64,000 nucleotides of DNA from an uncultured Gammaproteobacteria bacterium (GTDB lineage Bacteria; Patescibacteriota; Microgenomatia; JALYQM01). The stretch lies in NCBI GenBank assembly GCA_964403585.1, contig CAYOFQ010000001.1, positions 268,456 to 332,455 of the forward strand, given 5' to 3'. Made by a program: the position numbers and the translations under genes. Positions 5,541 to 49,194 of the stretch are shown piece after piece (position 1 is the first letter of the stretch; each line of letters starts with the position of its first letter). The notes beneath the pieces are model-generated. The model did no database searches, was not told the DNA's origin, and was given only the letters and a program-made list of their open reading frames with translations.

Positions 5541-8500
5541 ACAACAGCAGTAATAAGAACCGCATACGAGATATCCTGATCCTTTGTTTAATAGGGTTGA
5601 TTCCGTTGTTATGGTTTAGAGGGAACGAAATTATCCTTGGTCACGACGCAGGATTAACGCTCTCTCCGCAGAGTCATTTTCAGGATCGGCTTCACTCATG
5701 GACCGAACGATTCGGCTTTGGTAGTGATCAGTCCTATGCGATTCCGGGATTTTTTATCCACGGACTTGAATCACTGGTGAGTACGATCGGATTTAACGTG
5801 CAATATAACCAGAAAATCACCTTTATTTTTTGGTTTTTATTGCCGGGTCTTACCATGTATTATTTTGCCTCAAGACTAGAGAAAAAATACAACCTTTCAC
5901 ACTATGCCTTGCCGGTTTCTGTGCTATACATGGTTAATCATTTTCTGTTGCAGGGATGGTTTGTCGCCGAGCGGACCAAATTCTCGCTGTACGCAGCTTT
6001 GCCGCTCGTATTGGCATTCTTATTTGAATGGCAGGAAAATAAGCAAGCATCAACGGTTAAAACTGCCCTGAAAATAGCAGTTACGTTCTTCTTCCTGAAT
6101 GGATTAGCCAGCATACCGTTATTCGGCGGCGTGATCGTCACCCTCATTGCATACAGTCTCTTCTATTTTTATGAATCTTTTTCTTGGACCAGTGGGAAAC
6201 GGTTTATTCAACTTGTGTTCACCACCGTAATCGCAAGTATCTTTCTCCAAGCTTACTGGTTGCTACCATATGTGGATTTCTTAAGCAGTTCCTACGGTGC
6301 TTCGGTCGATTTTTTCGGCGGTATGCAAGGAGTTTTAGGGTGGATTCAGTATATTAGCCAAAACAGTTCCTTCACCAATTTGTTCAGGCTCCAGGGAGTT
6401 CCCGAATGGTACCAAAACCCGTCACATCCGTATGCCGGAAATTTTTTAAATAATCCTGTGCTAATTACGGTAGGGTATCTGATCCCGATTATGGCGTTTC
6501 TTCCGCTCCTGCTTGCAAAAGACATCCGGGTCCGTAAAATGTTACTATTTTTCTCGGCGCTGGCACTATTCTCAATGATTTTTATCGCTGGTTCGCATCC
6601 TCCGTTTGGCTTAATTTATATCGCTTTAGCTAAATATGTACCGGGTTTTATCGCTTTTAGAACTCCGTTTTATAAATTTGCACCTGCACTCTGGATTTCG
6701 TATGCCATCCTCATGGGATATACGATTCAGTGGCTGTACCACTGGCTGAGAAACCGCCAATATCTGGCTGCCAATGTTTTTTATGCGGCAGTAATTGCCG
6801 GAGTGCTGCTCTACTCATATCCATTTCTCACCGGAAGCTTCTTTGACTATATTAAAGGCGAACGCTCAATGCGGGTTACCGTACCAGAGTATATTTATCA
6901 GTATGCCAACTGGAGTGATCAGAAGGACAACCAGGGAAGGCGCACACTTGTTTTGCCCGCACCAAGTCGAGATTCTAATGTTGAAGCCTATACTTGGGGA
7001 TACTGGAGTTTAGCCCCGTTAACAACACTGCTGACTAACTCTCAGGTTATTAACCTGAATTTCTACATGAGTAAAACCGAGAAAGAAATGGTGAGCCAAC
7101 TCTATAAAATGATCGAAACTAACGACCCTGCCTGGATTAACTTAGCTCAATTTCTGCGTATCGATACCTTCGTATTAAGACGCGACTTTGCGTGGGATCT
7201 AAAAGAGTCTCCAACTAAAAATCCCGAGAGCTACGCAAACTTTGTAGCACTACCGGAACTGCAGCTAGCTCAGAAATTCGACAAGTGGGAAGTATACGAA
7301 CTTAAAAAAAGTAATACTAAGCAGAATCGGTTGACTGTCGACGCGAATATTTCCTATTACAGTGGTGCTAATGTCTCGGCAGCTTCCTCTTTACCGGGCT
7401 TTACACCCTCACAACCGTTATATAAGGCCGGCGATACACCGGCGGCTGATGCTAAAATCCTTCAGTTGGCGTCAAATATCTATGTGCAGCCAAAATGCAT
7501 CATGTGCGACTTGCAGTGGAAATATATTGACGTAAATACCTATATGCCGTTATTAACCAGAGGGTCGATTTTTTACCCGTTAATTGCTGGGCGGGAACAA
7601 AAGGAAGAAGCGAACGCGCAATTCGATGTTAATTCCAAAATGCAATTCTACGCCAATCGTACACTGAAAAATTTCATGGCTTTTAAAAAAGCGTTCGATG
7701 AAAAAGAAAATGAAGTAACCAGAAAAGCGATTATCGATGAATATGTTAGCTCAATGGACAAGTTCAAGAAAACCATGGCGGAGTTCGAGGAAAAAGCCAT
7801 CCAGCAGAATGATTTGCTGTATGATATAAACGCTATTCTCCATGCTCACCGCCGGGAACTTATTAATCAGCTCGACTCCTATGTTAAAAAAAGCGAAAAT
7901 ATGCGGGCTAATAAGGAGTTTGAAACTCTAAGCAATGCGTTCACAATTTTAACTGCTATTCAATCGCGTTTGGACTCACAAATTTGGCAGACCGGGGATA
8001 GTATCCATAAAAAATTCAGCATGATAATCCCTCAGGCAGGCGACTACACTATGTATTACCGGTCCAATGAAAATGGAGCGATTTCCGAAGAGCTCAATTT
8101 CTCAATAAATGATCGGGAATATACGGTAACCCCAACTCAGAATACATCGAATTGGTATTCACTTGGTTCTGTAGCATTGAAAGACGGCCTTAACCAGATC
8201 AATTTAACACAAAATCAAACGAATAAATATGAGGGAACCGCATCTGCCGAGCTCGTATCTTCGTATTCCGGAGGATGCTTTAAATCAAATAAAATCTTTG
8301 GCGAGAAAAACGACATTTTTAGGATCATGTTTGACCAAACTCAAGTAGTGGGTACAAAGGATTTCTTTATCGGGTTTATAAGCGATCCGCAAGAGCTAAA
8401 CCCTTTTTATGCCAAAGATTATCTGAACGCACATCCGCAAATGACAAAATATTCAACAGATTTTCCGGTTGCCGATGACGATGGGTTTTATATGATTATT

Positions 8501-13529: not shown

Positions 13530-14670
13530 AACTAGAATTGTCGCTGCTCTTCTCTGGGGTGCACTGTGTATCAGTTGTTTCACTATTATCTACCAGAATC
13601 GGGTATGGTATACCACGTTCAATTACTGGGAAAATTTTGCCGAGCTTAAGCGGGTTTTTCTTAACTCCCAATACGTTAATAAACATGCCACCGGCTATAT
13701 ACCCGACGAAACAGCCTACTCATATGCCGGCGGCGCGCTTATTCAAGGGACCAGCCCCATATTGGTCTTACCTGAAGCACCTCCGTTGGGAAAATATATG
13801 ATCGGCCTCTCAGCCGTCCTTTTCAATAATCCCAACATTATTATTATGCTTGTGTGTGGAGTTTTAGGCTTAGTGTACATGTATCTGATTGGGAAACAGA
13901 TATATCATTCTAAGATAACTGCTCTTGTTGCAGTACTTTTACTTACCTTGGAACCCCTGTACCGTAATCAGTTTGCCTACGTCCCGCTTTTTGATATTGC
14001 CCAGGTTTTCTTTCTGCTCGCGTCACTGTATTATTTCACCAAATCGCACATCTCGGAAAAGCATCCGCTACGATACCTGATCATCGCCCAGATTTTTGTC
14101 GGCCTCTTTATCTCAACCAAGTTCTATATGTCAGGGCTCACGATTTTAGGGGCCTTCTTCCTGGTCCTGCTTTACAACAAAGATGGTAAACGAATGAAAT
14201 ATCTCATTCTAACTTCCATCATTCCCGTTATAATTTTGTACGCCACCTACATCCGTGTCCTTATTATCGGTTATCCGTTCAACAAATTTCTGGGCATTCA
14301 ACGCTGGATATTTAACTTCTGGACCGGTAAGCTGAACTTGCCGTTCACTGTTTGGGCACTTGTGTTTGCCAATCAGTGGTACGTCTGGTGGGGTGATCAG
14401 CCGATCTTATCCGATTCACAGTGGCGTCTGACCTGGCCGCTCGTAACAGCACTCTCTTTTTTGACCGTCGGACTGTATCTATTCAAGCACCTGTCGAAGA
14501 AAAAAGAGCTCGAAGTTCTATTAGCCTACTCCGTCACCTATGGTGCATTCGCCAGTATTGGCCAGACCTCTGCCAGATACCTGGTTATCTACCTTCCGGT
14601 GTTGTATCTGGTTGCATTCTATCTTGTCGAAACTTATGTACGCAGAGCTTTACGCCGAACTCAAGTCTGA
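13516..14670 (+). CDS. GT-C fold glycosyltransferase (PMT_2/ArnT-like family), membrane protein
   Basis: 384 aa with about 9 TM helices. The first extracytoplasmic loop carries a DE motif (GYIPDETAYSYAGG), as in GT39/GT83 enzymes. Confidence 0.5.
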   Translation: MNLNKTRIVAALLWGALCISCFTIIYQNRVWYTTFNYWENFAELKRVFLNSQYVNKHATGYIPDETAYSYAGGALIQGTSPILVLPEAPPLGKYMIGLSAVLFNNPNIIIMLVCGVLGLVYMYLIGKQIYHSKITALVAVLLLTLEPLYRNQFAYVPLFDIAQVFFLLASLYYFTKSHISEKHPLRYLIIAQIFVGLFISTKFYMSGLTILGAFFLVLLYNKDGKRMKYLILTSIIPVIILYATYIRVLIIGYPFNKFLGIQRWIFNFWTGKLNLPFTVWALVFANQWYVWWGDQPILSDSQWRLTWPLVTALSFLTVGLYLFKHLSKKKELEVLLAYSVTYGAFASIGQTSARYLVIYLPVLYLVAFYLVETYVRRALRRTQV

Positions 14671-14684
14671 GATATAATCCCAGC

Positions 14685-16676
14685 ATGGCACAAATCTCAG
14701 GCAATGAATTACGGAACAAATATCTCGAATTTTTCAAAAACAGAGGACACGTCGAAATTCCTTCGGCACCAATGGTACCTCAAAATGACCCGACAACGTT
14801 ATTCGTAAACTCAGGTATGCAGCCAATGTTGTCATATTTATTAGGCGAAACTCACCCGGAAGGTAAGCGGATTGTCGATTCGCAACGTTGTTTCCGAGCT
14901 GAAGATATTGAGGAAGTCGGGGATAACCGTCACACAACCGCTTTTGAAATGCTTGGCAACTGGTCCTTGGGTGATTATTTCAAAAAAGAACAGCTACACT
15001 GGATTTTCGAATTTTTAACCAAAGAAGTTGGCTTCGACCCGCAGAAACTCTACGTTACCGTTTGCAAAGGGGATAAGGAAGCTAAAATACAAAACGAAGA
15101 CGGCACCATTCAGACACTGGGCCCTGATACCGAAGCCATTGATCTATGGAAAGAGTTATTTCGGCCGTATGGTATTGAAGCTGAATATGTAGATAACTCA
15201 CCTGAAAAAGGAATGCAGAATGGACGAATCTTTGGGTATGGCACCAAGAAAAACTGGTGGTCACGCGCCGGCGTCCCTGCCAAAATGCCGATTGGCGAGC
15301 CGGGTGGACCGGACGCCGAAATCTTCTACGATTTTGGATCAGATTTGAAATTACACGAAAACTCCGAATTCAAAGATCAACCGTGTCACGTCAACTGCGA
15401 CTGTGGCCGTTTTATGGAAATCGGCAACTCGGTTTTTATGCAGTATGTTAAACAGCCGGATGGAACCTTTAAAGAATTGGAGAACAAAAATATCGATTTT
15501 GGCGGAGGCTTGGAACGCATGTTGGCCGCCGCCTACGGACATCCGGATATGTTCCTGACCGATCTTTTCTTACCTCTGGTCAAAAAGATCGAACAGTTGT
15601 CCGGGAAAGATTATCAAGGCGAACATCAAAAAGCATTCCGGATTATCACCGATCACCTCCGCGCAGCAGTCATGCTTGCCTCCGACGGAGTGATCCCTTC
15701 CAACAAGGCCCAAGGCTATATGATGCGCCGTCTGATCCGCCGGGCAGTCGGAGCCGGAAGAGCATTGGGATTAACAGAAAACTTCACTCAGCATATTGTC
15801 CCGTTAATTCAGACCATGTACGAAGGTCAGTATCCGCAAGTATGTGACAAGACTATTCTCGGTATTATCGGAGAGGAAGAAACTAAATTCCGAAAAACAC
15901 TCGACAATGCGCTTGAGGAAGTAAAAAAGACACTCAAAGCTGCACAAATAACCAAAGAAAACATTGCTAAAGCAGCATTTGACTTGTACCAGTCACACGG
16001 ACTGCCCAGTGACATATTCCTAGACGAATATGAAAAAGAATTTCCGGGAACAATCAATTTGGAGTCTCGCCAGGAGATTCAGGAACAATTTGAAACGCTT
16101 TTCAAAGCCCATCAGGATCTCTCTCGAACTGCCTCCGCCGGCATGTTCAAGGGAGGATTAGCCGAGCATTCGGAGCAAATCATTCAATACCATACCTCAA
16201 CACATTTACTTCAGCAGGCACTGCGTGAAGTACTTGGGGATCATGTCGTTCAGCGCGGATCAAACATAACCAATGAGCGCCTTCGCTTTGATTTTACCTC
16301 TAACGAGCGGTTAACCGCGGATCAAATCAAGCGGATAGAGGAGATTGTTAACCAAAAAATTCAGGAAAAAATACCGGTATATTTCCAGAATATGCCGTTG
16401 GAAATTGCCCGAAAAACCGGAGCGATCGGACTATTTGGCGAAAAGTATCCGGAAGTAGTCAAAGTATATACAATTGGACCGGTTCCCGAGTTGGGGAGGG
16501 TAGGGGAGAGCATCGGAGGAGAGGACGAAGTAGTACAAAGGGCATCAGTATACTCGCGGGAATTCTGTGGCGGACCGCACGTTTCTAATACTGGCGAAAT
16601 CAAAGGTACGTTCAAAATTCAAAAAGACGAAAAAATTGCCAAAGACGTTGTTCGAGTAAAAGCTGTCTTAGTCTAG
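14685..16676 (+). CDS. alaS: alanine--tRNA ligase, short form lacking the C-terminal C-Ala/DHHA1 domain
   Basis: Catalytic core motifs FFKNRGH, PTTLFVNSGMQP and NWWS. Editing-domain HxxxH (HTSTHLLQQA) and CGGPH (EFCGGPHV). The protein ends about 55 aa after CGGPH, giving 663 aa from the ATG at 14685. The track start at 14421 would overlap the upstream gene by 250 nt. Confidence 0.9.
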   Translation: MAQISGNELRNKYLEFFKNRGHVEIPSAPMVPQNDPTTLFVNSGMQPMLSYLLGETHPEGKRIVDSQRCFRAEDIEEVGDNRHTTAFEMLGNWSLGDYFKKEQLHWIFEFLTKEVGFDPQKLYVTVCKGDKEAKIQNEDGTIQTLGPDTEAIDLWKELFRPYGIEAEYVDNSPEKGMQNGRIFGYGTKKNWWSRAGVPAKMPIGEPGGPDAEIFYDFGSDLKLHENSEFKDQPCHVNCDCGRFMEIGNSVFMQYVKQPDGTFKELENKNIDFGGGLERMLAAAYGHPDMFLTDLFLPLVKKIEQLSGKDYQGEHQKAFRIITDHLRAAVMLASDGVIPSNKAQGYMMRRLIRRAVGAGRALGLTENFTQHIVPLIQTMYEGQYPQVCDKTILGIIGEEETKFRKTLDNALEEVKKTLKAAQITKENIAKAAFDLYQSHGLPSDIFLDEYEKEFPGTINLESRQEIQEQFETLFKAHQDLSRTASAGMFKGGLAEHSEQIIQYHTSTHLLQQALREVLGDHVVQRGSNITNERLRFDFTSNERLTADQIKRIEEIVNQKIQEKIPVYFQNMPLEIARKTGAIGLFGEKYPEVVKVYTIGPVPELGRVGESIGGEDEVVQRASVYSREFCGGPHVSNTGEIKGTFKIQKDEKIAKDVVRVKAVLV

Positions 16677-16989: not shown

Positions 16990-17274
16990 ATGGCTTCTGA
17001 AGAACTGAAACAACTACTCATTTTAAGAGAAGAGATGGCCTCACGAGACGGATGGTGTCCGGAGATGGCCGATGAAATCGATCGCCGACTCGGTGATCCT
17101 AGTCTGGAAGTACCCGCCGCCGTTCGTCGACGATTGTTAGATATAGCTAAAGTAGCGCAATTTCACCGTCTAACTGAAGAGGGACTTTTAAGGGTTGTAA
17201 GTAATCCTGGAGATTATATTGGAATAACTTCGGCAAGTCTTATAAATGGTTCCGGTGGTGTAAGGCGGGTCTAG
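16990..17274 (+). CDS. hypothetical small protein (94 aa)
   Basis: Only an ORF, with locally higher GC than the flanks. No recognisable motif. Its 3' end overlaps the convergent HD gene by 4 nt. Confidence 0.25.
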   Translation: MASEELKQLLILREEMASRDGWCPEMADEIDRRLGDPSLEVPAAVRRRLLDIAKVAQFHRLTEEGLLRVVSNPGDYIGITSASLINGSGGVRRV

Positions 17275-17846
17275 ATCTCTAGTTTGTTCAGAAAATCTTG
17301 AACCTTTAATTTATCTACATTCTGCTCTTCACAATACCCATACAGAGTTTGCAATTGCCGATCAAGGATTGTATGTGCCAGGGCTAGTTTTTTGGAATTG
17401 AGAATACTGGGCGAGACCTGTTTTATTTCGTAAATAAAGGCAATATAATCTACAATTTTAAGATCTGTTTTAAGCGATTCATCCATAACTACTCCGAGAG
17501 CTTTCACAATATTTCCCTGGATACTGTCCAGTTCTTTTTTTACATCCGGAGATTTAAACATCGGCAAAATATCTCCGGTTACCGATTCATGGAGATCATG
17601 AATCAGTGCCATAGTTACCAGTCGATCACGTTTCTCATCCGAGAAGTCGTTATATTTTGCCCAAAAGAGCGCAATTAACGCAGTCGCAAAAGAATGTTTA
17701 CCAACATCCCAGTTTCCCCCAAATCCACTGACACCAAACACCCGGGGAATATTAAATACGTTCATCAAAAAATCTAAATTGGGATTTTTTTCTACCTCAG
17801 CCAATAACCCTTGCGGAGTAAAAATGTCTTTAGAGGAAAGAATCAT
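17271..17846 (-). CDS. HD-domain phosphohydrolase (YfbR-like 5'-deoxynucleotidase family)
   Basis: The H...HD...D metal-binding pattern (HSFATA ... LIHDLHESVTGDI) is typical of HD/YfbR proteins. Confidence 0.7.
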   Translation of the reverse strand: MILSSKDIFTPQGLLAEVEKNPNLDFLMNVFNIPRVFGVSGFGGNWDVGKHSFATALIALFWAKYNDFSDEKRDRLVTMALIHDLHESVTGDILPMFKSPDVKKELDSIQGNIVKALGVVMDESLKTDLKIVDYIAFIYEIKQVSPSILNSKKLALAHTILDRQLQTLYGYCEEQNVDKLKVQDFLNKLEI

Positions 17847-18032: not shown

Positions 18033-18989
18033 ATGAAATCTAAAAAAATAGCTTTAATTTTATCCTCAATTTTCGCTGTCGCACTGGTGTCAGGTACGTT
18101 TCTTTTCCTGTACTTTAATCAGGATCAAAACCAGGTACCACCGAGCAGCGCGTATACGTTACCGTCCGCTCAGACATTCAAAGTTGATCCCTTCCCGGTT
18201 CCAGCATCAGGCATCTACACCAGTGAAAAAAACGGTGACTGGGATTTTGCTTCAAACAAAAATGAAGGTTGGATTAAAGTCCGCAATAATGCCACAACCA
18301 CACGCAAAATAGGTTGGCAGATCGACTGTCGACCCGATCAGCCGGGAGGATCATCCTGCTGGGATAATGCTGCTAACCCGCGGGGCGAATTATCCGTGGC
18401 ACCCGGCGAAGCCTGGGAAGTTCTGGTCGGTCCGCAGTGTTTCCCGTATCAGTTGGATTTCACCGGTCCGGATTTTGGCCGCTTAATGACACAGGACACG
18501 AGCAAGTGTAATGTCACTAGCACGCCAAGCCCGTCACCGACTCCAACTCCATCTCCTTCACCATCAGTCTCTCCGTCGTCTACACCGTCCCGCAGCCCCA
18601 GCCCCAGTGCCTCACCTTCCAGAAGTCCCTCGGCTTCACCAAGTCACACTGCTATTCCATCACCTAGCATAACCGCTTCACCGAGTCCAACCATAACCGC
18701 GACACCCAGCCCGTCTCCAACAAGTACCCCTCCCGTAGGCGGACCCTCAAATACACCTACCCCAAGTCCAACAGCAACACCTACCGCAACTCCCGCTGTC
18801 AGCTCAACACCGACGCCAACTCCTGTTGCCGGCGCTTCCTCAACTCCTGAGCCCGGTGATCGGGCCGTTGCCGATGCCACTGCTCTGCCTGAAGCCGGTA
18901 TCAGTAACGGAGTTCTGTTCACAGTGATCGGTGGCGTATCATTGCTTATCTCCGGAGTATTCGCCATCCTGAAAAAGAAGTATTACTAA
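18033..18989 (+). CDS. cell-surface protein with N-terminal signal anchor, Pro/Ser/Thr-rich linker and C-terminal sortase-type sorting signal (LPEAG + hydrophobic helix + KKKYY)
   Basis: N-terminal hydrophobic segment. A ~110-aa SPSP/TPTP low-complexity linker. C-terminal LPEAG, then GISNGVLFTVIGGVSLLISGVFAIL, then KKKYY. This is the canonical tripartite LPXTG-like architecture. Confidence 0.6.
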   Translation: MKSKKIALILSSIFAVALVSGTFLFLYFNQDQNQVPPSSAYTLPSAQTFKVDPFPVPASGIYTSEKNGDWDFASNKNEGWIKVRNNATTTRKIGWQIDCRPDQPGGSSCWDNAANPRGELSVAPGEAWEVLVGPQCFPYQLDFTGPDFGRLMTQDTSKCNVTSTPSPSPTPTPSPSPSVSPSSTPSRSPSPSASPSRSPSASPSHTAIPSPSITASPSPTITATPSPSPTSTPPVGGPSNTPTPSPTATPTATPAVSSTPTPTPVAGASSTPEPGDRAVADATALPEAGISNGVLFTVIGGVSLLISGVFAILKKKYY

Positions 18990-19032
18990 TACGTAATTGC
19001 GCGGCAAAGACCAATTTTGTTACAATCCGAGC

Positions 19033-21219
19033 ATGTCTACACTCGAAGAAATATATCAAATCAGGCTCAAAAAACTTGAGGAATTACGTAGAAAAGGGAT
19101 AAATGTTTATCCGACAAAATTTCCCCACGATAATGCAATTAAGCCTATCCTGGATAACTTCACTAACTTTGACGGTATTCAGGTCTCAACTGCAGGGCGA
19201 ATCATGTCCTGGCGTGAACATGGAAAGTCTACCTTCGGACATCTTCAGGATGAAACCGGCAAAATTCAAATCTACTTCAAAATCGACGAAATGAAGGAGG
19301 ATGCCTACGAACTTATAAAATATTTGGATGTGGGAGATATTATCGGGGTCAAAGGAACTGCTTTCCGTACACATCGTGGAGAAATAACGATCCTGGTCAA
19401 AGAATGGGATCTTTTAACCAAATCACTTCGACCTTTACCTGAGAAATGGGAAGGGTTATCCGACAAAGAAATCCGCTTACGCAAACGATATCTCGACCTG
19501 TTAATGAATGAAGATTCCCGCCGCATTTTTAAAATTCGTCACGATCTGGTCAGAGGAATCCGTGAATTTCTCGATCGCAAAGGTTTAACCGAAGTGGAGG
19601 TCCCCATCCTGCAACCGTTATATGGCGGTGCCAACGCCAAGCCCTTCACAACGCACATCAATTCTTTGGATAGCCTGGCATATCTTAAGATTGCATCGGA
19701 ACTGTACCTGAAGAGGCTCGTCGTGGGCGGTCTTGGTGGGGTTTATGACATCTCCAAGAACTTCCGTAATGAAGGTGTTGACCAGACCCATTATTTCGAG
19801 TTCTCCATGCTCGAAGCCTATGTTCCCTATATAGATTACCAGCAGATGATGGATCTCTTAGAGGAAATGATGCGCTATCTGGCTATGGATGTCTTAAAAA
19901 CCGAAGTGGTTAAAGTCCACGAGAACGAAGTAAATCTTAATCAGGAATGGAAGCGTATCACCATGTATGATCTCATCAAAGAAGATCAGGGGATTGATGT
20001 AACCAGTATGTCGGACGATGAGCTGTTAAAATATGCTCACTCTAAAAAGATCGATTTGGAAGGGAATACCCGTCGGGGAGAAATAATTTTCTATATCTTC
20101 GATAAAATTTCCTCCAAGAAATTAATGAATCCCACCTGGGTCTACGATTACCCTATGGAGATAAGTCCATTATCCAAACGTAATTTTGATCGGCCCGAAA
20201 TTGCCGAGCGGTTTGAACTGTACATTGGTGGTAAGGAAATAATGGACGGTTGGTCGGAAAAGAATGACCCGATCGACCAGCGCCAGTCTTTTGAGGCTGA
20301 AAACTACCGCAAACTCGATGCTGAGTCCGAAGTAGCGCAGCCAATCGACGAAGATTTTATCGAGTCTATGGAATACGGAATGCCTCCGACAGCCGGAGTT
20401 GGTGTGGGAATCGAACGCTTAACTGAATTTTTTACCAACGTCTGGACAATTCAGGAAACAATTTTATTCCCGTTCAAAAAGCCGATCGTTGATAGTGACG
20501 CCGACGATGGCCAAACACTATTTCTGGTTACCAAAAAAATATATGAACAATACCCCGATACCCTGGTTGGGGTAGTTATCGCCAGAGATATTCACAATGG
20601 TGAAAGTACCGAAGAAATCCGTGGATTATTACAAACAGAACAACAGCGGATAAAGTCCACCCTAACAGAGGAGACGTTAAAAGCCGATCCAAAAATAAAT
20701 ATCTGGCGTGAAACCTTCAAGAGTTTTGGTTCAAAACCTTCGGAATACCGTTCTTCGGTTGAGAATCTTCCCCGTATGATCCTGAAAGGCCGCGAACTAC
20801 GCTCGGAAAATAAATTGGTGGATATTTACAATTATGTATCACTCAAATATACACTTCCCGCGGGAGGGGAAGATCTCGACAAAACCGAAGGTTCAATTAA
20901 ATTAACTTTTGCCGGCAAAGATGAAGCGCCGGTTAAATTGCTGGGAGATGAAAAAGAAGAATCACCGTATGAAGGAGAAGTAATCTATAAAGATAACCTT
21001 TCAGCTATTTGTCGACGCTGGAATTGGCGCGAAGCCGACCGAACCAAACTTACCAGAGAAACTAACAATGCAGTGCTGGTTTTAGAGGCAAGAACCCCGG
21101 TAACTGTAGAAGAACTTGAAACTGCCCTGACTGAGTTAGCACAATTACTTGAAAGGCATACCGGTGCAAAGACTGCGACCAAAGTGCTCACCTCTGGCGA
21201 CCCCGGTATAAATATATGA
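19033..21219 (+). CDS. lysS: lysine--tRNA ligase (class II) fused to a C-terminal B3/B4 (PheT-type) tRNA-binding/editing domain
   Basis: aa 1-490 is a LysRS: OB anticodon-binding domain, then class II motifs. aa ~500-730 carries the B3_4 signature (VDIYNYVSLKYTLPAGGEDLDKTEGSIKLTFA; VIYKDNLSAICRRWNWREADRTKLTRETNNAVLVLEA). An extended -10 (TGtTACAAT, 19009-19017) lies 15 nt upstream of the ATG. The track start at 18997 is a TTG. Confidence 0.8.
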   Translation: MSTLEEIYQIRLKKLEELRRKGINVYPTKFPHDNAIKPILDNFTNFDGIQVSTAGRIMSWREHGKSTFGHLQDETGKIQIYFKIDEMKEDAYELIKYLDVGDIIGVKGTAFRTHRGEITILVKEWDLLTKSLRPLPEKWEGLSDKEIRLRKRYLDLLMNEDSRRIFKIRHDLVRGIREFLDRKGLTEVEVPILQPLYGGANAKPFTTHINSLDSLAYLKIASELYLKRLVVGGLGGVYDISKNFRNEGVDQTHYFEFSMLEAYVPYIDYQQMMDLLEEMMRYLAMDVLKTEVVKVHENEVNLNQEWKRITMYDLIKEDQGIDVTSMSDDELLKYAHSKKIDLEGNTRRGEIIFYIFDKISSKKLMNPTWVYDYPMEISPLSKRNFDRPEIAERFELYIGGKEIMDGWSEKNDPIDQRQSFEAENYRKLDAESEVAQPIDEDFIESMEYGMPPTAGVGVGIERLTEFFTNVWTIQETILFPFKKPIVDSDADDGQTLFLVTKKIYEQYPDTLVGVVIARDIHNGESTEEIRGLLQTEQQRIKSTLTEETLKADPKINIWRETFKSFGSKPSEYRSSVENLPRMILKGRELRSENKLVDIYNYVSLKYTLPAGGEDLDKTEGSIKLTFAGKDEAPVKLLGDEKEESPYEGEVIYKDNLSAICRRWNWREADRTKLTRETNNAVLVLEARTPVTVEELETALTELAQLLERHTGAKTATKVLTSGDPGINI

Positions 21220-33246: not shown

Positions 33247-36200
33247 ATGACCAAAAAAATAACGATACTGCTCACATTAGGTTTTGTTCTCATAACAGCT
33301 CTTGTTCTGGGACTTAAACAAACCGGTTTTGCCCGCACGGTTGGAACATACATCAGCTCAGCCTTTTTAGGACAGAATGTCGCACCAACAACTGATGCAG
33401 CTAAGGCAAAAGTAGCATCCTCAGGAGCAGTTCTTGGTCTCGATGATGAATTTTATCGAAGCTTAGAACAAATCAATTTTAATCTCCCTTCATTCTTCAA
33501 TGATTATGTGAACATCAGCGGCAATCTTACAGTAGGAGGAAATACTACTCTTGAAAAAGATGCGACCGTTTCGGGAAGTTTAGCAATAGACCAGGACTTA
33601 ACTGTACGCGGGCAACGAATTAATTTTGGGACCGCCACGGTTACCGGGGGCAACCTCATCACAGCACTCACTGCGGGTAGTGGGATTGCGGTATCTACCG
33701 GCACGACTCCCACTATCTCTAACTCCGGTGTACTCTCATTACAGGGAAGAACAGGCGCGCTCGCACTTGAGGCCGGAGATAATATCAAAATTGACGGGTT
33801 AAAAATAAGCGCGGAAGTTCCGGATGTGCCGGAAGTCGAAGTAAACACATTCAAGAATTTCGCGGTATCAGGTCAGAGTACGTTAACAGCCAGTGGGGAA
33901 GACGACACGTTCACGTTTGCTAACGGTCCGGGTATCACCATAACGACAAACGCTACCAATAAGACTACCACCATCGGCATGATCGGAACATGTTCTGCCG
34001 GAGAAGTTTTGAAGTGGAACGGAGTTTCCAACACTTGGGTGTGCGGCAATGATGCCGGATCATCCGGACTCGGCATCATCAATGTTGAAGAAAGCGATGT
34101 TGTTGTCAGCCCAACTGCAGATACACTAGATTACAACGGCAACGACTTCTCTCTTACCGAAGCCCCAACCGGTGAAATAAATATCGCTATCGATTATTCT
34201 AACTCCAATATTACCAGGAAGAATGTCGCCGAAACCCTGACACAAAGCTGGAATTTTTCAAATGGGATTCAGGTTTCCTCTTTAAGCACTGGTGTTGTAC
34301 AGTCCAATGGTTCAGGAGTGCTTTCCTCGTCAGCGCTCAATTTGGCCGGAGGATCATCACTCATAACCGGTGTATTACCGCAGGCCAATGGGGGAACCGG
34401 GTTTTCTACCTACAGTACCGGAGATTTAATCTATGCTTCAGCAACAGATACACTTGCCAAGAGAAGTATTGGTTCAAATGGGCAAGTCTTATCGGTAACA
34501 GGCGGACTACCCGTGTGGTCTGATGTAAATGCTCTATGTGCAACCTGTGTGGTCACCGATCCAAATGCTACTCAGGTAATTACACCAACGGATACCGCTG
34601 CCACCGGATTATCTATCGCGCAGATTGTCGGGGGAACTGCCGATGTATTTAGTGTCACAAATAACACCGGCTCGACCAAGTATTTACAAGTCAACTCCTC
34701 AGGGAACGTCAGCTTTTCCGGTAACGCCAGTGTTGGTGGTAATTTGAGTGTAACAGGAACCTCCGCGCTTACCGGCAACATTACTGCAGGGGGAACAATT
34801 TCCGGGTTAACCGGAATTACGTCATCCGGGACAATTACTTTTTCGGGACTCGGCACCGGGGTCGTCCAATCGAACGGATCAGGAGTACTTTCCTCAACTG
34901 CTTTGAATTTAGCAGGCGGATCATCATATGTTACCGGCACGCTTCCACAGGCAAACGGCGGAACAGGGTTTTCAACCTATACTACCGGAGACATAATCTA
35001 CGCCTCAGCAGCCAATACGTTATCCAAGCGATCGGTAGGCACAAACGGAACAGTCTTAACAGTCTCAGGTGGAGTTCCCACCTGGACTACCATCAGTGGA
35101 GGATCCGGTGGTGTCTGTACTGATTGTATTGTTAACGATCCCGGTTCAACGCAAACAATCACGCCAACTATCGCCACGGCTACGGGATTAACCGTCGCGC
35201 AAGCAGCCAGTGGCTCAGTGGATATATTTAGCGTTACGAACAACGACGGTTCCTCTAAATTTTTACAAATTAATTCCTCCGGAAACATTATTGCCTCAAA
35301 TCTTTCCGGTTCGGGTAATCGTGTGCTCTACACAACAGCCGGAGGACAAGTATCTGCGCTCACTGACGGAGGTTCCAACCAAGTGCTCACTACCAACGGA
35401 TCAGGGACATTATCCTGGACCTCTTTGGCAGGTGCGGGTGGCGTTACGGGATCAGGCTCCAACGGTTTGATATCTTTCTGGACAGGAACCTCCACCCTAA
35501 GCTCTAATGCCAACTTCTTCTGGGATGACTCCAACAGTCGACTCGGCATCGGAGACATCACACCCGCTGCAGCATTAACGGTCGGAAGCGGAGATGCCTT
35601 TCAAGTGAATTCGTCAGGTGCTATCGCTGCCGCAACAGGAATAACGTCATCCGGAACAATCATCCTTTCCGGTTTATCTACCGCCGGGCTAGTAACCAAC
35701 ACCTCCGGCGGTGTATTGGGAACAACTGCGACTATCGGAGCAAGTTATATCACGGCAGATGCCCTAGACTTTACCGAGTTTAAAGATGCCCTGACGCTTG
35801 ATGCTTCCACAGACATTGGCGTCACCGGAACCAATGTTTTTTCAATCACCAATTCGGGAACAGGTAATAGTTTGGTTGTGAACGATCAGGCTTCGGATAC
35901 CACGCCATTTGTGGTTGACGCCTCCGGCAATGTGGGAATAGGTGTCTCATCTCCAGGTGTAAAGTTGGATGTGAGTGGTCAAATCAGAAGTACACTCGAT
36001 ACAACAGTAGCAGATAGCGGATCATCTGGAGCGTCAGGAGCATTAAGACTACGCTACAACAGTTGGACTACCGGTCACGGAGCAAATCTTCAATTTGATA
36101 TCGGATCTTATGATAGTGCAGGAAACGTTATTAGAAGCCAGCTCACAAATGCCGGAGGAAGTGGCATTAGTGATCTTATATTCTATGGAAAAGATTCAAC

Positions 36201-39200
36201 TGCGGTTGCACAAGGCACGCTCAGCGAGTATATGAGAATCGAAGCTGGGGGTAATATAGGCATTGGTAACACGAATCCTTCATACAAGTTAGATATCGCC
36301 GATTCCGGTACTACTTCCGGTATTCGAGGTCTTAATGTTGCACAGACGGGAGCTGTTTCAGGAACAGGCTACGCGGGTTATTTTTCCAAAACAGGGGCTT
36401 CAACTACAAACATTGGTCTATATGCAGAAGCCTCCGGCGCAACAAATAATTATGCCGCATGGTTTCAGGGGCCAACCCATTACACAAGGTTTACGGATGG
36501 GTATCTTTTAGATACTTCTGCTGCTAACTTATATATTCTTGATGGTGTAGTATTCCGTGGTGATCTAGCAAATGATGTCTCGAACTGGGCAATTCGCACT
36601 GATTTCAACGGGGGAACCTTAGAATTATCAACAGATCAATCAGGCGGTACGAGAAACACTAATCAGGTAAAACTTCAGGCTGACGGAACAACGTACTTCG
36701 GGTCGGGTAATATCGGAATAGGGGACTCTTCACCTGCATCGTTATTTACAGTAGGATCGGGCGACTTATTCCAAGTAAATTCTTCAGGAGCGATAGCATC
36801 TGCTACAGGGATTACGTCCTCTGGCACGATTACCTTAAGCGGACTCTCTACCGCTGGTCTTGTTACCAACACATCTGGCGGAGTCTTGGGTACAACAACT
36901 ACCATTGGCGCAAGTTATATTACCGCTGACTCATTAGATTTTACCGAATTTAAAGATGCCATGACACTCGATGCGTCTACAGATATTGCTGCCATAGGTA
37001 CGAATGTATTCTCACTCACTAACTCGGGGACAGGAAACAGCCTTGTTGTTAACGACCAATCCAGTGATACCTCACCATTCATTGTTGATGCTTCAGGTAA
37101 TGTTGGGATCCAAACCAGCACCGCTAACGATGCCTTAGACGTGGCAGGGAATATTGATTCGTCAGGATATTACAAGTTAGCCGGCACAAAAATACTTGAT
37201 CTGGTCAATAATGGCTCATTACTTGTCGGTCATGGTGCAGGTAACTCAATAATTTCCGACATGGATTTTAACACCTTAGTGGGTAAGGATGCCGGGTACT
37301 CAATAAACGATGTTGGGGCAGATTCTAATACTGCGATCGGGTACACATCTCTATACAATAATATCAGCGGACGAAGCAATGTTGCCGTCGGTTTATATGC
37401 AGGGGGTGATCTCACAAGTGGAAATTACAATGTCTTTATTGGTAACTCGGCCGGTGAAGGTGGAACATCCGCTTCAGGAAGTGAAAACGTGGCAATTGGT
37501 TATCAGAGTTTTCTTAATTTTACCAGTGGCGTGGCCAATGCCATATTCGGCTACTCATCAGGTCAAACTATAACTTCCGGAGACTATAACACATTTCTCG
37601 GGTCATACATAGATATTGAAGACGGAACCTATTCTAACTCAATCGGTATTGGTGCCAATGCTTACATTCGATCCAGCAACCAGTTAGTTATTGGAGGTTC
37701 AGGCTCAAGCTATATCAACGACGCGTACATTGGAGGAGGTATCAGATCGACAAGTCCACAGGATTTGGCAATCAATGCTACCGGAGGGCAAGGTAGCGAT
37801 ATCGCCGGTGCCGATTTAACCTTAGCCGGAGGAAAAGGCACCGGAAGTGGACTCGGTGGCGCACTCATTTTTAGTACTGCCGGAGCAGGTTCAACAGGTT
37901 CAACTCCAAACACACTCTCTGAACGAATGCGTATCGATAGCAGCGGTAATGTGAATGTCGGTGGGGATACGACACCAAATGCGCAGTTTACCGTTGGCTC
38001 TACATCACAATTTCAGGTCAACTCCTCTGGTGCTATTGCTGCCGCAACAGGAGTAACGTCTTCAGGAACGATAACATTATCGGGACTTTCAACCGCAGGA
38101 CTTGTTACAAACACTTCAGGCGGAGTACTGGGAACAACTTCTACCATTGGTGCAAGTTATATTACCGCCGACTCCTTAGACTTCACCGAATTTAAAGATG
38201 CCATGACGCTCGACACATCAACAGACATTGGTGTTACTGGAACCAATGTACTTTCAGTTACTAACTCCGGAACGGGTAACAGCTTAGTAGTAAATGACCA
38301 GGCTTCGGATACAACTCCCTTCGTCGTTGATGCATCCGGTTTTGTCGGCATTGGTACGTCGTCTCCAACGAATGCCCTTGATGTCGGTGGTAAATTTGTA
38401 GTCAATACGACCACAACTAAAGCAGCGCTCGGATATACTGACACATCATTATTTAGCCAGACCTTTGGAATAAACGGATCATTATGGCTAAATGGCGGCA
38501 TAGTTCTCGCCGGCGGATCAACCATAACACCACAAGGCGGATCAACCATAAATATTGGCGGCGGAAACACAGTTAATATAAACTCCGGAAGTATTTATAC
38601 TTCCGGAGCTGGTGGAAACGTTGGTATAGGGGATACCTCTCCAGCCGCACTCTTAACTGTCGGCTCCGGCGATTTATTCCGGGTAAACTCATCCGGAGCA
38701 ATCGCCGCTGCTACGGGTATCGCTTCTTCCGGAACAATTACTTTCAGTGGATTATCTTCAGGAATTACCTCAAACGGTGTCTGTCTCAACGCCAGTAATC
38801 AACTCATTACCTGTTCGTACGGGGGCGGAACTGGAACAATGAATACATTTACCGCGGCAGGAGATTCCGGAGGAGGACAAACGATCACCGACAATAACAC
38901 GTTATCTATTTTAGGAGGAACCAATGGAATAGATACCGTAGACAGTATTACCGACACTATAACCTTGAACTTGGACACAACTGAAATTGGATCAACCACG
39001 TTTGGATCAGGTTCAGGCCTAACCTGGACATTCGATGCCTCAGCCGGAACCGACCCAACCATTGCCTTTGCCAATAACGCAATAACCTTTACTGCTAACT
39101 CTGCAACATTTACCGGAGCAATAACTGCACCGACATCGTCCAATACCATTAACAGTTTAATTATTAATGCCGGTGCACTTTCGGGAGTAACAGGATTCAG

Positions 39201-42200
39201 CCAAGCTTCCGGAGCATTTACTGTGAACGGCAGCGGAGCGGTCGCCTTAGGCACCGGAACAAACAATGTTTCAATTGGCAACAGTAGCGGTACTTTTGCA
39301 CTTACCTCGAGTGGCGGATTGAATGTCACAACCGGTGGTGCTCTTACGGGTGTAGCTTCAATTGATACCATTAGCACTTCGGCTACAGCAATTGGCTTTG
39401 CCGGAGCAGGAACGATAACCTCAAATACCACCAGTGCACTCACTTTGGATTCAGGATCATCCGGTACTGTTAACCTGGGTACCGGCAACAATGCCAAAAC
39501 AATTAACGTTGGCACAGGCACGGCAGGGAATACTATCAATGTGGGAACAGATAACACCGTCGCTGACACGATCGGCATCGGCAGTGCGCTTGACACGGTA
39601 AGCGTAGCAGGAACAACCAGCATTCTTGGCGCCACTACCATCAACGGATCGGGCTCTTTAGCTACGAACATCGGAACCGGCACTTCTACCGGAACCATAA
39701 CCATTGGCCGAACAACCGGTACTGACTTAGCATTAAATGACTCCAACTGGAATATTTCCGGAGCAGGTGCTGCTAACTTCGGTTCAATCGGCGCGACCAC
39801 TCCGGGCACTGGAGCTTTCACCACGCTTTCATCAACTGGTGCCACAACTATAGGCAACAACTCATCAACCGTAGCTATTGATAGCAGCGTCTGGGATATT
39901 TCTTCGGCCGGTGTTGCAAGCGGATTAACTGGCATTTCCTCCTCAGGTACGATCACCTTCTCAGGAATTTCCTCAGGTACCGCATCCAATGGTGTCTGTG
40001 TAAACGCGAGCAATCAGTTAATCACCTGTTCGTATGGTGGCGGAACAATGTCCAGTTTTAATACAGGTGGTGACACTGGCTCCGGCTCGATAATAAATGG
40101 CGACACCTTAGTTATTAATGGAGGCACTAATGGTATAGACACCGCGCTCTCAGGTGACACATATACCCTTAATTTGGATACAACCGAAATTGGTACCAGT
40201 ACCTTCGGATCCGGCTCAGGCATTACCTGGACGTTTGATGCCGGTGCCACAGATCCAACGCTGGCCTTTGCGTCAGATCAAATCACCGCCACGGCCGGAA
40301 CTGCAGTATTATCAGGAACCACCACTTTAACAGCTTCATCGTTAAGTACATTAACAACTGCTGCTACTTTAGGTATGGCTTCAACATCAACCTTAAACTG
40401 TGCCGACTGTATCGATTTTGATGACATGAAGGATTCCATGACTATCGATGCTGCGACAGACATCAATTTGGGCGCAAACGCCTTTACCATAGACTTAGAC
40501 TCAACCGGTGATTTTTCCATTCGCGACGTTACCGCAGACATCGCTACCTTCTCAGATAACGGTGCAATATCATTTACTCCAACCTCCGGTCAAGGAATTA
40601 CCAATACTATAGCCGGCGCGGGGAACTTCACCGTAACAACAGCAACTGGAACCCAAACCTTCACATCGAGTGTCGTAAGCGGCACAACCACAACCTCCGG
40701 ATTCGTATTTGATGCTACTGCAATTAATTCCGGTACCGGCATGTACCTCACCAGTGACAGTATCACCTCAGGGAAATTATTACAGTTGGCAACCACCGGT
40801 AATACGTTTACATCAGGAACAATCTTGGATGTAACTACTACATCAACTTCATTAACCTCAGGAGGCCTTGGCTCGTTCGATTGGTCACCTGGTTCATCTA
40901 CCACTGCTACCGGTGATCTATTCTCGCTAAATATTGGCACAAACGGTAATATCGGCAGTATTTTCAATGTCAAAGATAGCGGTACTTCTGTATTCAGTGT
41001 GACTGAATCCGCCATTACTGCTAACTTGCCGGCCAATTTTAACGCTGCGGGTGATGTATCGTTTGCAAACAACCTCGCGTTAACCAACCAAACAGCCAGC
41101 TATATTCGTTCCAATGCACCATTGTATTTGGAAGCAGGTGAAATATTCGAAAGTAATGACTTGACCTTAAGAACATATAACAGTGGCCAACTCGTCATAG
41201 ACGCTGCCGGCGGAACCAACATCAACAGCGTGTCATATATTTGGCCGTCATCTCAAGCCGCCTCGTCAGGATATGTCTTGACCAACAACGGATCAGGAAC
41301 ATTGTCATGGGCAACGGCGGGAAGTATGAGCAGTTTCACAGCAGCCGGAGACACGGGATCGTCTCAGACCATTAGCAACTCAGATACGTTCTCAATACTT
41401 GGAGATACCAACGGAATTGATACAGTTGCTTCGGCAACCGATACCATAACGTTAAATCTCGACACAACCGAGATCGGTACAACCACCTTTGGTTCTGGCT
41501 CAAATCTCACCTGGACCTTCAACTCCGCCGGAGCTACCGATCCAACTTTTACTGCGGGCACAGGAACACTCTCCTACGGGTTGGTAGACAACACCGCCTC
41601 GGCATTTACATTAGCTGAAGGATCAAATAATTATTTCCGCATCGACACCACTAACTCAGCTCCGGTAGTTACCCTGGACACACTGGAAGCCGGCGGCACC
41701 ATGAACTTTGGTTCATCCAACTTCGGACGAACAATAAATATTGGAACCGGAACCGGCGCCGATACTATTAATATCGGAACAGGTGCTACCACCGCCGATG
41801 CCATCACCGTCGGAAATACCGGCGTTGCCACTACCTTTACCTTTAATTCCGGAGCCACCACTCAAACACCAATGGCATTCAATCTGGATGCCCTCACTAC
41901 CGGTACCGGCTTGGATTTTTCCCTCGACGGATTAACAACTGGAATCGGTATGAAGGTGGACGATAACACGGGAGCTGGGTTATCAACCGGAACTATGCTT
42001 TACATCAACTCTGTTTCAACCGCCTTAACAACTGCCACAAACGGCGGATCACTCGGGTACTTTAACTGGAATCCCGGTTCATCAACAACAGCCACCGGTG
42101 ATCTCTTCCGCATTAACATTGGGTCAAGCGGCTCAACTACTGGGAATCTCTTCAATATCACCGACAACGGCACCTCAATTTTCTCTGTGAGTGAAACAGG

Positions 42201-48843: not shown

Positions 48844-49150
48844 ACTACGTATTATTATCGTGGTACTCTGTGAAACCACACGAAGGTTTCCTGAGCTTCA
48901 GACCTAACCAACTTTCCGGTATTGATCAATCTTTATTGAAAAATTTTACCCAAAGCTCGGGTAACCTGATCGCCTAGGTAAAAATACGGACATTGCTGTT
49001 GTTGGTCGGAGCGCGCTAATGTAAATCTAAAATGTTTGTAAACGGCAAAGGTCTTACCTCTTACAAGTACGGACACTCCATAACGAAAACAGTTCGGTTC
49101 GCTTCGGCCAGTAATACGCTGGCTGGTTTTATTGCCTCTCGACTTGAACT

Positions 49151-49181
49151 CTGCTACTATGAGACGTACTACAGGTAGTAT
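49151..49181 (+). promoter_or_regulatory. second copy of the conserved promoter-like leader (CTGCTA - 19 nt - TAGTAT), upstream of LamG paralog 2
   Basis: See the 44055-44085 feature. The two copies differ at 3-4 positions only. Confidence 0.4.
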
Positions 49182-49194
49182 CAAAGCTGTCCAA

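Follow-up and report, generated by a model that had tools for sequence, protein, structure and literature searches.

Hydrolytic editing modules that clear misacylated tRNA occur both as free-standing proteins and as parts of aminoacyl-tRNA synthetases. The second additional domain of threonyl- and alanyl-tRNA synthetases (ThrRS and AlaRS) has a free-standing counterpart in AlaX, and the INS domain of prolyl-tRNA synthetase (ProRS) has counterparts in YbaK/ProXp. The B3/4 modules, whose fold differs from those of the ThrRS, AlaRS, and ProRS modules, follow the same logic: in PheT, the beta chain of phenylalanyl-tRNA synthetase (PheRS), the B3/B4 region edits aminoacyl-tRNA as an integral domain of a class II synthetase, whereas CtdA is a stand-alone monomer linked to the arginine system, where it acts on canavanyl-tRNA(Arg). 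To our knowledge, lysyl-tRNA synthetase (LysRS) has no separate proofreading domain. Extra modules do accompany the LysRS core in LysX of mycobacteria (MprF-LysRS) and in eukaryotic LysRSs with helical N-terminal or with C-terminal extensions (for example, PDB 4up7), but these use or bind Lys-tRNA, for lipid lysylation or tRNA binding, and none has an aminoacyl-tRNA hydrolase fold. Here, we describe a gene, lysS::ctdA-like, that encodes a class II LysRS fused in frame to a CtdA-like B3/4 module. It lies in a stretch of 64,000 nucleotides (the window, meaning the whole of the DNA analyzed) from the 1.57-Mb contig CAYOFQ010000001.1 of assembly GCA_964403585.1, positions 268,456 to 332,455 of the forward strand, which is deposited under an uncultured Gammaproteobacteria bacterium and placed by GTDB in the Patescibacteriota.

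The only editing described so far for class II LysRS, against homocysteine, homoserine, and ornithine, is a pre-transfer cyclization at the synthetic site (PMC7373986, PMC5370406). The Escherichia coli enzyme is also reported to mischarge tRNA(Lys) with arginine and other amino acids, and not to deacylate the Arg-tRNA(Lys) (PMC5370406). CtdA of P. canavaninivorans has a pocket lined by Trp and Ile and a rim of basic residues (PMC12268091); the CtdA pocket takes arginine as well as canavanine, and its hydrolysis of Arg-tRNA is weak (PMC12449066). The Y104F, N105D, E118Q, and E191V mutants of P. canavaninivorans CtdA are inactive, E118 lying at the floor of the pocket (PMC12268091); N105A, G116H/W, and Q173G inactivate the S. 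enterica enzyme, C166 tunes its specificity, and the active C. perfringens CtdA has Glu at position 173 (PMC12449066). Set beside these systems, the module fused to the window LysRS is probably (at about 0.6) a tethered post-transfer editing domain that would remove a cationic, arginine-like residue misacylated to tRNA(Lys).

The fused protein is encoded by a single open reading frame (ORF) on the plus strand (18997/19033..21219), and translation of the DNA revealed no stop or change of frame within it. The ATG at 19033 (MSTLEE...) is the start common to the orthologues; an alternative TTG at 18997 would lengthen the protein by 12 residues. The preliminary description of this DNA had reported an in-frame LysRS-B3/4 fusion with a junction near residue 490, and this was borne out: the uninterrupted 728-residue ORF matches PF01336, PF00152, and PF03483, both peptide strings that had been quoted occur in the translation, the junction lies near residues 485 to 495, and we saw no missed stop or frameshift there. 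The product is laid out as a class II LysRS (residues 1 to 483), a 12-residue acidic linker, and a 233-residue B3/4 module (Table 1). An identical 728-residue ORF is encoded in the Logan assembly of SRR16481187 (L001), and the same ORF, with the upstream TTG as its called start, lies on another Logan contig (P0241; 69.6 kb). Eight further orthologues from other samples, at 76 to 85% identity, share the architecture, and the character of the linker is kept among orthologues. The only homopolymer near the junction, an A7 at ~20533-20539, is inside the B3/4 part, and the in-frame alignment to free-standing proteins continues from one side of it to the other. We rejected an assembly artifact because the fusion recurs in other assemblies and in many orthologues and because homology runs through the junction in frame; a frameshift-fused assembly is effectively excluded.

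Table 1. Features of the fused gene and of the genes directly downstream (window coordinates; residue numbers refer to the 728-residue protein)
Feature	Position	Strand	Basis or remark
lysS::ctdA-like, whole gene, 728 residues plus TGA stop	19033..21219	+	Continuous ORF; identical ORF in other assemblies; Pfam/NCBIfam
OB-fold anticodon-binding domain of LysRS, residues 51-128	19183..19416	+	PF01336 tRNA_anti-codon, 58 bits
Class II catalytic core of LysRS (D/K/N), residues 144-482	19462..20478	+	PF00152 tRNA-synt_2, 265 bits
Acidic flexible linker PIVDSDADDGQT, residues 484-495	20482..20517	+	Translation; low predicted local distance difference test (pLDDT) score; DNA homology break
Complete CtdA-like B3/4 aminoacyl-tRNA deacylase module (predicted), residues 496-728	20518..21216	+	Sequence, AlphaFold2 (AF2), Foldseek
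Pfam B3_4 core, residues 558-709	20704-21159	+	PF03483, 84.3 bits versus a cutoff of 29.3
Y599-N600, equivalent to CtdA Y104-N105; near the aminoacyl-ribose ester, both required	20827..20832	+	Alignment; PMC12268091, PMC12449066
G611-G612-E613-D614, corresponding to the VGGEN motif of CtdA (G116, G117, E118)	20863..20874	+	Alignment; PMC12268091, PMC12449066
C660-RRWNWR-E667, equivalent to CtdA C166, rim R167/R168/R172, W169, and Q173 (here Glu)	21010..21033	+	Alignment
E685, equivalent to CtdA E191, second acidic pocket-floor residue	21085..21087	+	Alignment; E191V abolishes activity (PMC12268091)
Truncated GNAT acetyltransferase ORF, 108 residues	21216-21542	+	ATG overlaps the lysS stop (ATGA)
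PLD-like protein, 381 residues	21577-22722	+	Follows the GNAT ORF

The N-terminal 484 residues of the protein were recognized as LysS (NF001756, 597 bits versus a cutoff of 468), and the whole protein matched TIGR00499 (530 bits versus a cutoff of 428). Motif 2 (FRNEG) and motif 3 (GVGIERL) are intact, and the core aligns end to end with a solved class II LysRS (3a74; E 1.7e-127), terminating at the conserved ...ILFPFKK (residue 483). That the gene encodes a functional class II LysRS is the best explanation of these matches.

The appended protein begins at LFLVTKKIY (residue 496), and LFLVTKKIYEQYP, which follows the linker, aligns with the extreme N terminus of free-standing relatives (consensus MKFxIDxKIFEKFPG). 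The C-terminal 238 residues match full-length free-standing proteins of ~234 residues with 50 to 57% identity and 94 to 97% coverage. These relatives come from Patescibacteria, DPANN archaea, Thermoanaerobaculia, Chloroflexota, and Babeliales, where they are separate genes located mostly away from lysS. Support from the Pfam B3_4 profile hidden Markov model was clear (84 bits over a cutoff of 29.3 for the whole protein, 87.6 bits for the C-terminal 234 residues scanned alone). In a phmmer search of PDB sequences, the top matches were the CtdA structures 9mkl (S. enterica; E 1.8e-26) and 9f7e (P. canavaninivorans; E 1.7e-25), with 34 to 37% identity to the crystallized CtdAs over ~155 residues, and PheRS beta chains appeared only at E 0.08-1. 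An AF2 model of the module built from 118 relatives had a pLDDT of 94 and a predicted template-modeling score (pTM) of 0.91. With this model as the query, Foldseek ranked CtdA first (template-modeling score [TM] of 0.81 to 0.85 over 225 to 234 columns) and PheRS beta second (TM of about 0.55 to 0.6), with LRRC47 as a distant match.

The resemblance to CtdA extends to the active site. Alignment to CtdA mapped Y599, N600, G611, G612, E613, C660, R661, R662, W663, R666, E667, and E685. The module shares the full-length fold, the Y-N pair, and the GGE motif of CtdA; the residues Y104, N105, G116, E118, and E191 (the second pocket-floor Glu) that CtdA requires are identical, as are Cys166, the RRWNWR rim, the Ser108 equivalent, and, more generally, most of the basic rim. 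The Y599-N600 pair was invariant in all 144 family members examined. Y599, N600, G611, G612, E613, C660, and E685 are invariant in the 9 orthologous fusions, which constitute the clade that we call group A, and in 117 to 120 of 120 free-standing relatives. C660, the equivalent of the Cys166 that separates CtdA-1 from CtdA-2, was found in 9/9 group A fusions and 120/120 free-standing relatives, and every position of C660-RRWNWR-E667 is kept in 9/9 and in at least 112/120, respectively. The lining of the pocket differs: the CtdA residues W158, W187, I189, and Q173 correspond to Y652, V681, V683, and E667, with W169 retained. Consistent differences from CtdA are W158Y, W187V/I, I189V, Q173E, and N119D in the pocket and R76E and R87M on the rim; the pockets of the free-standing relatives are identical to that of the module, including at the positions that differ from CtdA. 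As judged by these residues, the module appears to have kept what it needs to hydrolyze the ester and to bind a cationic side chain, in a pocket that has been reshaped and made more acidic. Such a combination of retained machinery and altered pocket suggests a substrate related to, but not identical with, that of CtdA.

The preliminary description had assigned the domain to the PheRS-beta type, and this label does not hold, because the module is a whole CtdA-like protein and its PheT matches are marginal (E of about 0.1). The two share the superfold, PF03483, and a conserved Asn (E. coli N254, equivalent to CtdA N105 and to N600 here). CtdA has none of the PheRS specificity residues R244, H265, G318, and E334 (PMC12449066), and at the mapped specificity positions the module follows CtdA rather than PheRS: among the mapped PheT editing-site residues only the Asn is shared, H265 corresponding to G611 and G318 to E667 (equivalences as in PMC12449066). 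The PheT model TIGR00472 scored 26.7 bits against a cutoff of 402.65, and none of the remaining PheT context (B1, B5, and B8 domains, alpha subunit) is present. A PheT-type editing domain was therefore rejected, since sequence, fold rank, and active-site residues all disagree with it. We call the module CtdA-like rather than CtdA because it shares the sequence, fold, and catalytic residues of the CtdA family, whereas it is fused in frame to LysRS instead of being a free-standing monomer and its pocket lining is different.

The linkage of this B3/4 subfamily to LysRS is recurrent. Among the returns of our LysRS search, 24 proteins carry a B3/4 module, and in a tree of the domain the fused modules fall into three groups. 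Group A, the clade of the window gene, consists of C-terminal fusions nested within the free-standing family; group B (P0026) has the module at the N terminus and is likewise nested among free-standing proteins; and group C comprises 14 sequences in a divergent clade of C-terminal fusions whose pocket carries E118F, C166N/T, R168D, and E191D. A scan of species-representative genomes yielded 412 loci with relatives, of which we surveyed the best 80. These 80 included 3 group A fusions and 3 in-frame N-terminal B3/4::LysRS fusions (L059, L073 [a Babeliales metagenome-assembled genome, or MAG], and L074), which, like group B, are found in Babeliales-like genomes. Another N-terminal B3/4::LysRS arrangement (L078, 6823-8263) has an interrupted LysRS, with the ORF stopping at 7710 and LysRS similarity picking up again in a different frame at 7859; it could be a pseudogene or the result of a sequencing error. 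In a Woesearchaeote (L080), the B3/4 and LysRS genes are adjacent on the same strand, 40 nucleotides apart. An exhaustive HMMER search covered 1.84 billion cluster representatives, and 16 of the best 150 LysRS clusters (50% identity) carry B3/4, 12 at the C terminus and 4 at the N terminus. When all neighbors of the 80 loci were clustered, no other neighbor or fusion partner recurred across lineages; the remaining neighbors of the free-standing family at these loci reflected just lineage-specific synteny or spurious antisense and upstream ORFs, and the apparent upstream extensions of family members contained no further domain that we could find. We regard this recurrent, independent linkage as a strong Rosetta-stone signal that ties the B3/4 subfamily to LysRS in particular. 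The fusion had been called unusual, which is correct for LysRS generally but not here, where it recurs in many uncultured lineages, in both orders and together with other appendages.

We found LysRS-HD (P0030, P0028, and P0092) and LysRS-DUF2000 (P0091) proteins, the three-part forms LysRS-HD-B3/4 (P0018), LysRS-B3/4-HD (P0022), and LysRS-B3/4-DUF2000 (P0101), and a NUDIX-B3/4 protein (P0159); 44 of the 134 other LysRS cluster representatives are at least 600 residues long. In Patescibacteria-type lineages, LysRS serves as a hub to which hydrolase-like modules besides B3/4 are appended. The DUF2000 tail matched only PDB 2gax (Atu0240, function unknown; E 0.011), and a PDB search by sequence returned no solved relative of the HD tail. 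HD genes also occur near lysS: an HD_3/YfbR-like gene at 17271-17846 (minus strand) lies ~1.2 kb upstream in the window, with one ORF between, and in the closest relative of the window (L002) an HD-like gene of 341 residues (6518-7543, plus strand) immediately follows the unfused lysS. Together with the LysRS-HD fusions, these neighbors suggest a recurrent LysRS-HD association. A tie between the appended modules and the turnover of diadenosine tetraphosphate (Ap4A) or aminoacyl esters is speculation.

In the mechanism that we propose, LysRS would now and then attach a cationic near-cognate amino acid to tRNA(Lys), arginine or a guanidino or basic analogue being the leading candidate, and the tethered deacylase would sample the 3' end of the mischarged product. 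The basic rim (K568, R581, K585, R661, R662, R666, R670, and K672) would hold the CCA end, a deep pocket with an acidic floor (E613 and E685, plus E667 and D614) would bind the cationic side chain, and Y599/N600 would position water for hydrolysis of the ester, with Lys-tRNA(Lys) being spared. As modeled, the domain probably edits in trans while tethered, which keeps its local concentration high, and not through a rigid cis channel, because the linker is disordered in the model (residues 473 to 492 have a pLDDT of <50 in the full-length AF2 prediction) and both domain orders occur in nature. Added tRNA affinity or editing had been offered earlier as roles for the domain; of these, editing is the likelier, tRNA binding being less so given that the pocket residues are invariant.

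Several observations weigh against an editing role on tRNA(Lys). LysRSs with cores that are 76 to 87% identical occur both with and without the module in the same synteny, and we found no core positions that separate fused from unfused enzymes; nothing in the core thus points to a relaxed specificity. At 72 of the 80 loci surveyed, the free-standing gene is not beside lysS, and so the B3/4 family does not depend on LysRS. The pocket is so similar to that of CtdA, with C166 kept and Glu at the position that is Glu173 in the active C. perfringens enzyme, that activity on canavanyl-tRNA(Arg) is conceivable. The full-length AF2 model has a pTM of 0.58 and is uninformative about domain docking. Finally, synonymous sites are saturated between orthologues, which limits the comparison of module and core to nonsynonymous divergence (dN) instead of dN/dS; dN is ~3 times higher in the module (0.23 to 0.30) than in the LysRS core (0.07 to 0.11), with no change at the required pocket positions.

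Other functions have to be weighed against this proposal. The module might be an ordinary CtdA orthologue that hydrolyzes canavanyl-tRNA(Arg), or another tRNA(Arg) product, in trans, with the fusion to lysS serving just for co-expression. Such a reading would fit the 34 to 37% identity to characterized CtdAs over ~155 residues, the retention of all CtdA catalytic residues together with C166 and the Glu173 of the active C. perfringens enzyme, and a family that is mostly free-standing and unlinked to lysS. We nevertheless consider it unlikely, because in the data examined the independent fusions, in both orders, and the one adjacency involve LysRS and never ArgRS, and because the pocket lining differs consistently (W158Y, W187V/I, I189V, Q173E, and N119D). 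The hosts, moreover, are groundwater and sediment Patescibacteria, DPANN archaea, and Babeliales, in which legume canavanine would be unexpected on ecological grounds.

Appended tRNA-binding domains are common in aminoacyl-tRNA synthetases, and the module could also be a noncatalytic addition by which LysRS binds tRNA(Lys) more tightly, comparable to the EMAPII-like or helical extensions of eukaryotic LysRSs or to the RNA/ribosome-binding LRRC47. The invariance of the buried Y599, N600, E613, E685, and C660 in 9 orthologues and in 117 to 120 of 120 free-standing proteins makes this quite improbable, as does a module that diverges ~3 times faster than the core in dN and yet never changes at its catalytic and substrate pocket positions. 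Closely related LysRSs function without the module, too. The conserved basic rim, the 777-residue LysRS with an extension in the PDB (4up7), and the distant fold match to LRRC47 speak for simple binding. A hydrolase for some other LysRS-linked ester, acting either in turnover of cognate Lys-tRNA(Lys) or on a lysyl or aminoacyl ester of a non-tRNA carrier, is an idea that we likewise hold to be quite doubtful: the B3/4 fold is known to act only on aminoacyl-tRNA esters, the pocket and rim closely match those of the aminoacyl-tRNA deacylase CtdA, and hydrolysis of cognate Lys-tRNA would be a futile cycle. It gains from the existence of the LysRS-HD, LysRS-DUF2000, three-part B3/4, and NUDIX-B3/4 combinations and from the many LysRS representatives of at least 600 residues (44/134), by which B3/4 might be one of a wider set of hydrolases (HD, DUF2000, and NUDIX) on LysRS, directed for example against by-products such as Ap4A, which class II LysRS makes (PMC5370406). 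There is, last, the chance that two adjacent genes were joined by an assembly or sequencing error in which a stop was lost or a frame shifted. A MAG as the source is the reason to consider it, and it is very improbable in view of the same ORF in other assemblies, the 8 orthologues at 76 to 85% identity, distant fusions from unrelated samples, the in-frame homology flanking the only homopolymer, and the conserved linker.

In the literature that we searched, the coverage of which was not exhaustive, we found no described LysRS-B3/4 fusion, and the words LysRS, lysyl, and fusion are absent from the CtdA papers. The pairing of LysRS with B3/4 thus appears to be undescribed, whereas synthetases paired with editing modules that have free-standing paralogues are well known. 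It is possible, at a little under even odds, that this is the first LysRS with a dedicated post-transfer editing domain and that the CtdA-like family of Patescibacteria, DPANN archaea, and Babeliales serves to proofread tRNA(Lys) and not to detoxify canavanine. If so, LysRS would become the eleventh synthetase with editing; a built-in CtdA-type deacylase would fill the post-transfer gap of LysRS and alter the textbook statement on its proofreading, and the CtdA-like family might, for instance, deacylate the Arg-tRNA(Lys) that class II LysRS produces but is unable to eliminate. The B3/4 fold would gain a new specificity, extending its substrate range past Tyr/m-Tyr-tRNA(Phe) and canavanyl-tRNA(Arg), and an abundant unannotated family in Patescibacteria (CPR, the candidate phyla radiation) and DPANN would have a testable function.

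Databases label the fused proteins merely "lysine--tRNA ligase," and three free-standing B3/4 proteins of 234 residues (P0145, P0160, and P0186) were named "lysyl-tRNA synthetase class 2" by the Joint Genome Institute (JGI), a name presumably transferred from fused proteins. Both labels, "lysine--tRNA ligase" and "lysyl-tRNA synthetase," merit correction. Several MAGs that carry the B3/4 family (L009, L011, L040, L075, and L087) are titled "uncultured Gammaproteobacteria" or "uncultured Pseudomonadales"; the gene content of L009 and L011 looks Patescibacteria-like despite these titles.

The nearest named relatives of the window LysRS and of the short AlaRS encoded upstream are in Patescibacteria and WWE3, and the lineage keeps the order AlaRS, 318-residue protein, LysRS, Nramp (minus strand), MscL, and TPR. 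DNA homology to the closest relative that lacks the domain (L002) breaks off at 20491 and is found again from the Nramp gene, and tblastn found no domain remnants after the unfused lysS of close relatives (E >1). Fused and unfused enzymes are interleaved on very short branches in a tree of the LysRS core; the domain is a recent gain or loss in the window lineage. The preliminary description had linked a possible role of the fusion to a reduced genome, a rationale that is not needed because close relatives with the same synteny and 76 to 87% identical LysRS cores do without the domain. Overall GC content is 0.43 in both parts of the gene, and third-position GC is 0.365 in the B3/4 part (20518-21216) versus 0.478 in the core (19033-20481), a gap that may reflect separate origins or just differing constraint.

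Directly downstream of the fused gene are the truncated GNAT ORF and the PLD-like gene (Table 1). Both of these genes are missing from two orthologous loci (L007 and L008), in which nothing separates the fused lysS from the Nramp gene; they are therefore a window-specific insertion outside the system, and we rejected a functional link between them and the fusion on the same ground. We found no tRNA genes and no Rfam matches in the window. Between the short AlaRS gene and lysS, the 318-residue protein (18033-18989, plus strand) begins with a membrane helix and ends in a hydrophobic anchor, and a long low-complexity stretch in it is rich in Pro, Ser, and Thr; Pfam gave no match to it, and L007 carries a 318-residue gene at the matching position. 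The AlaRS itself (14655-16676, plus strand) is short, at ~660 to 670 residues, with tRNA-synt_2c and tRNA_SAD and without the C-terminal C-Ala region. All 120 AlaRS relatives listed are similarly short, most of the named ones being from Patescibacteria, and the nearest named relative is 57% identical. Farther downstream, the window contains three consecutive giant ORFs on the plus strand, at 33247-44028, 44098-48843, and 49132-54915, which encode proteins of 3,593, 1,581, and 1,927 residues, respectively.

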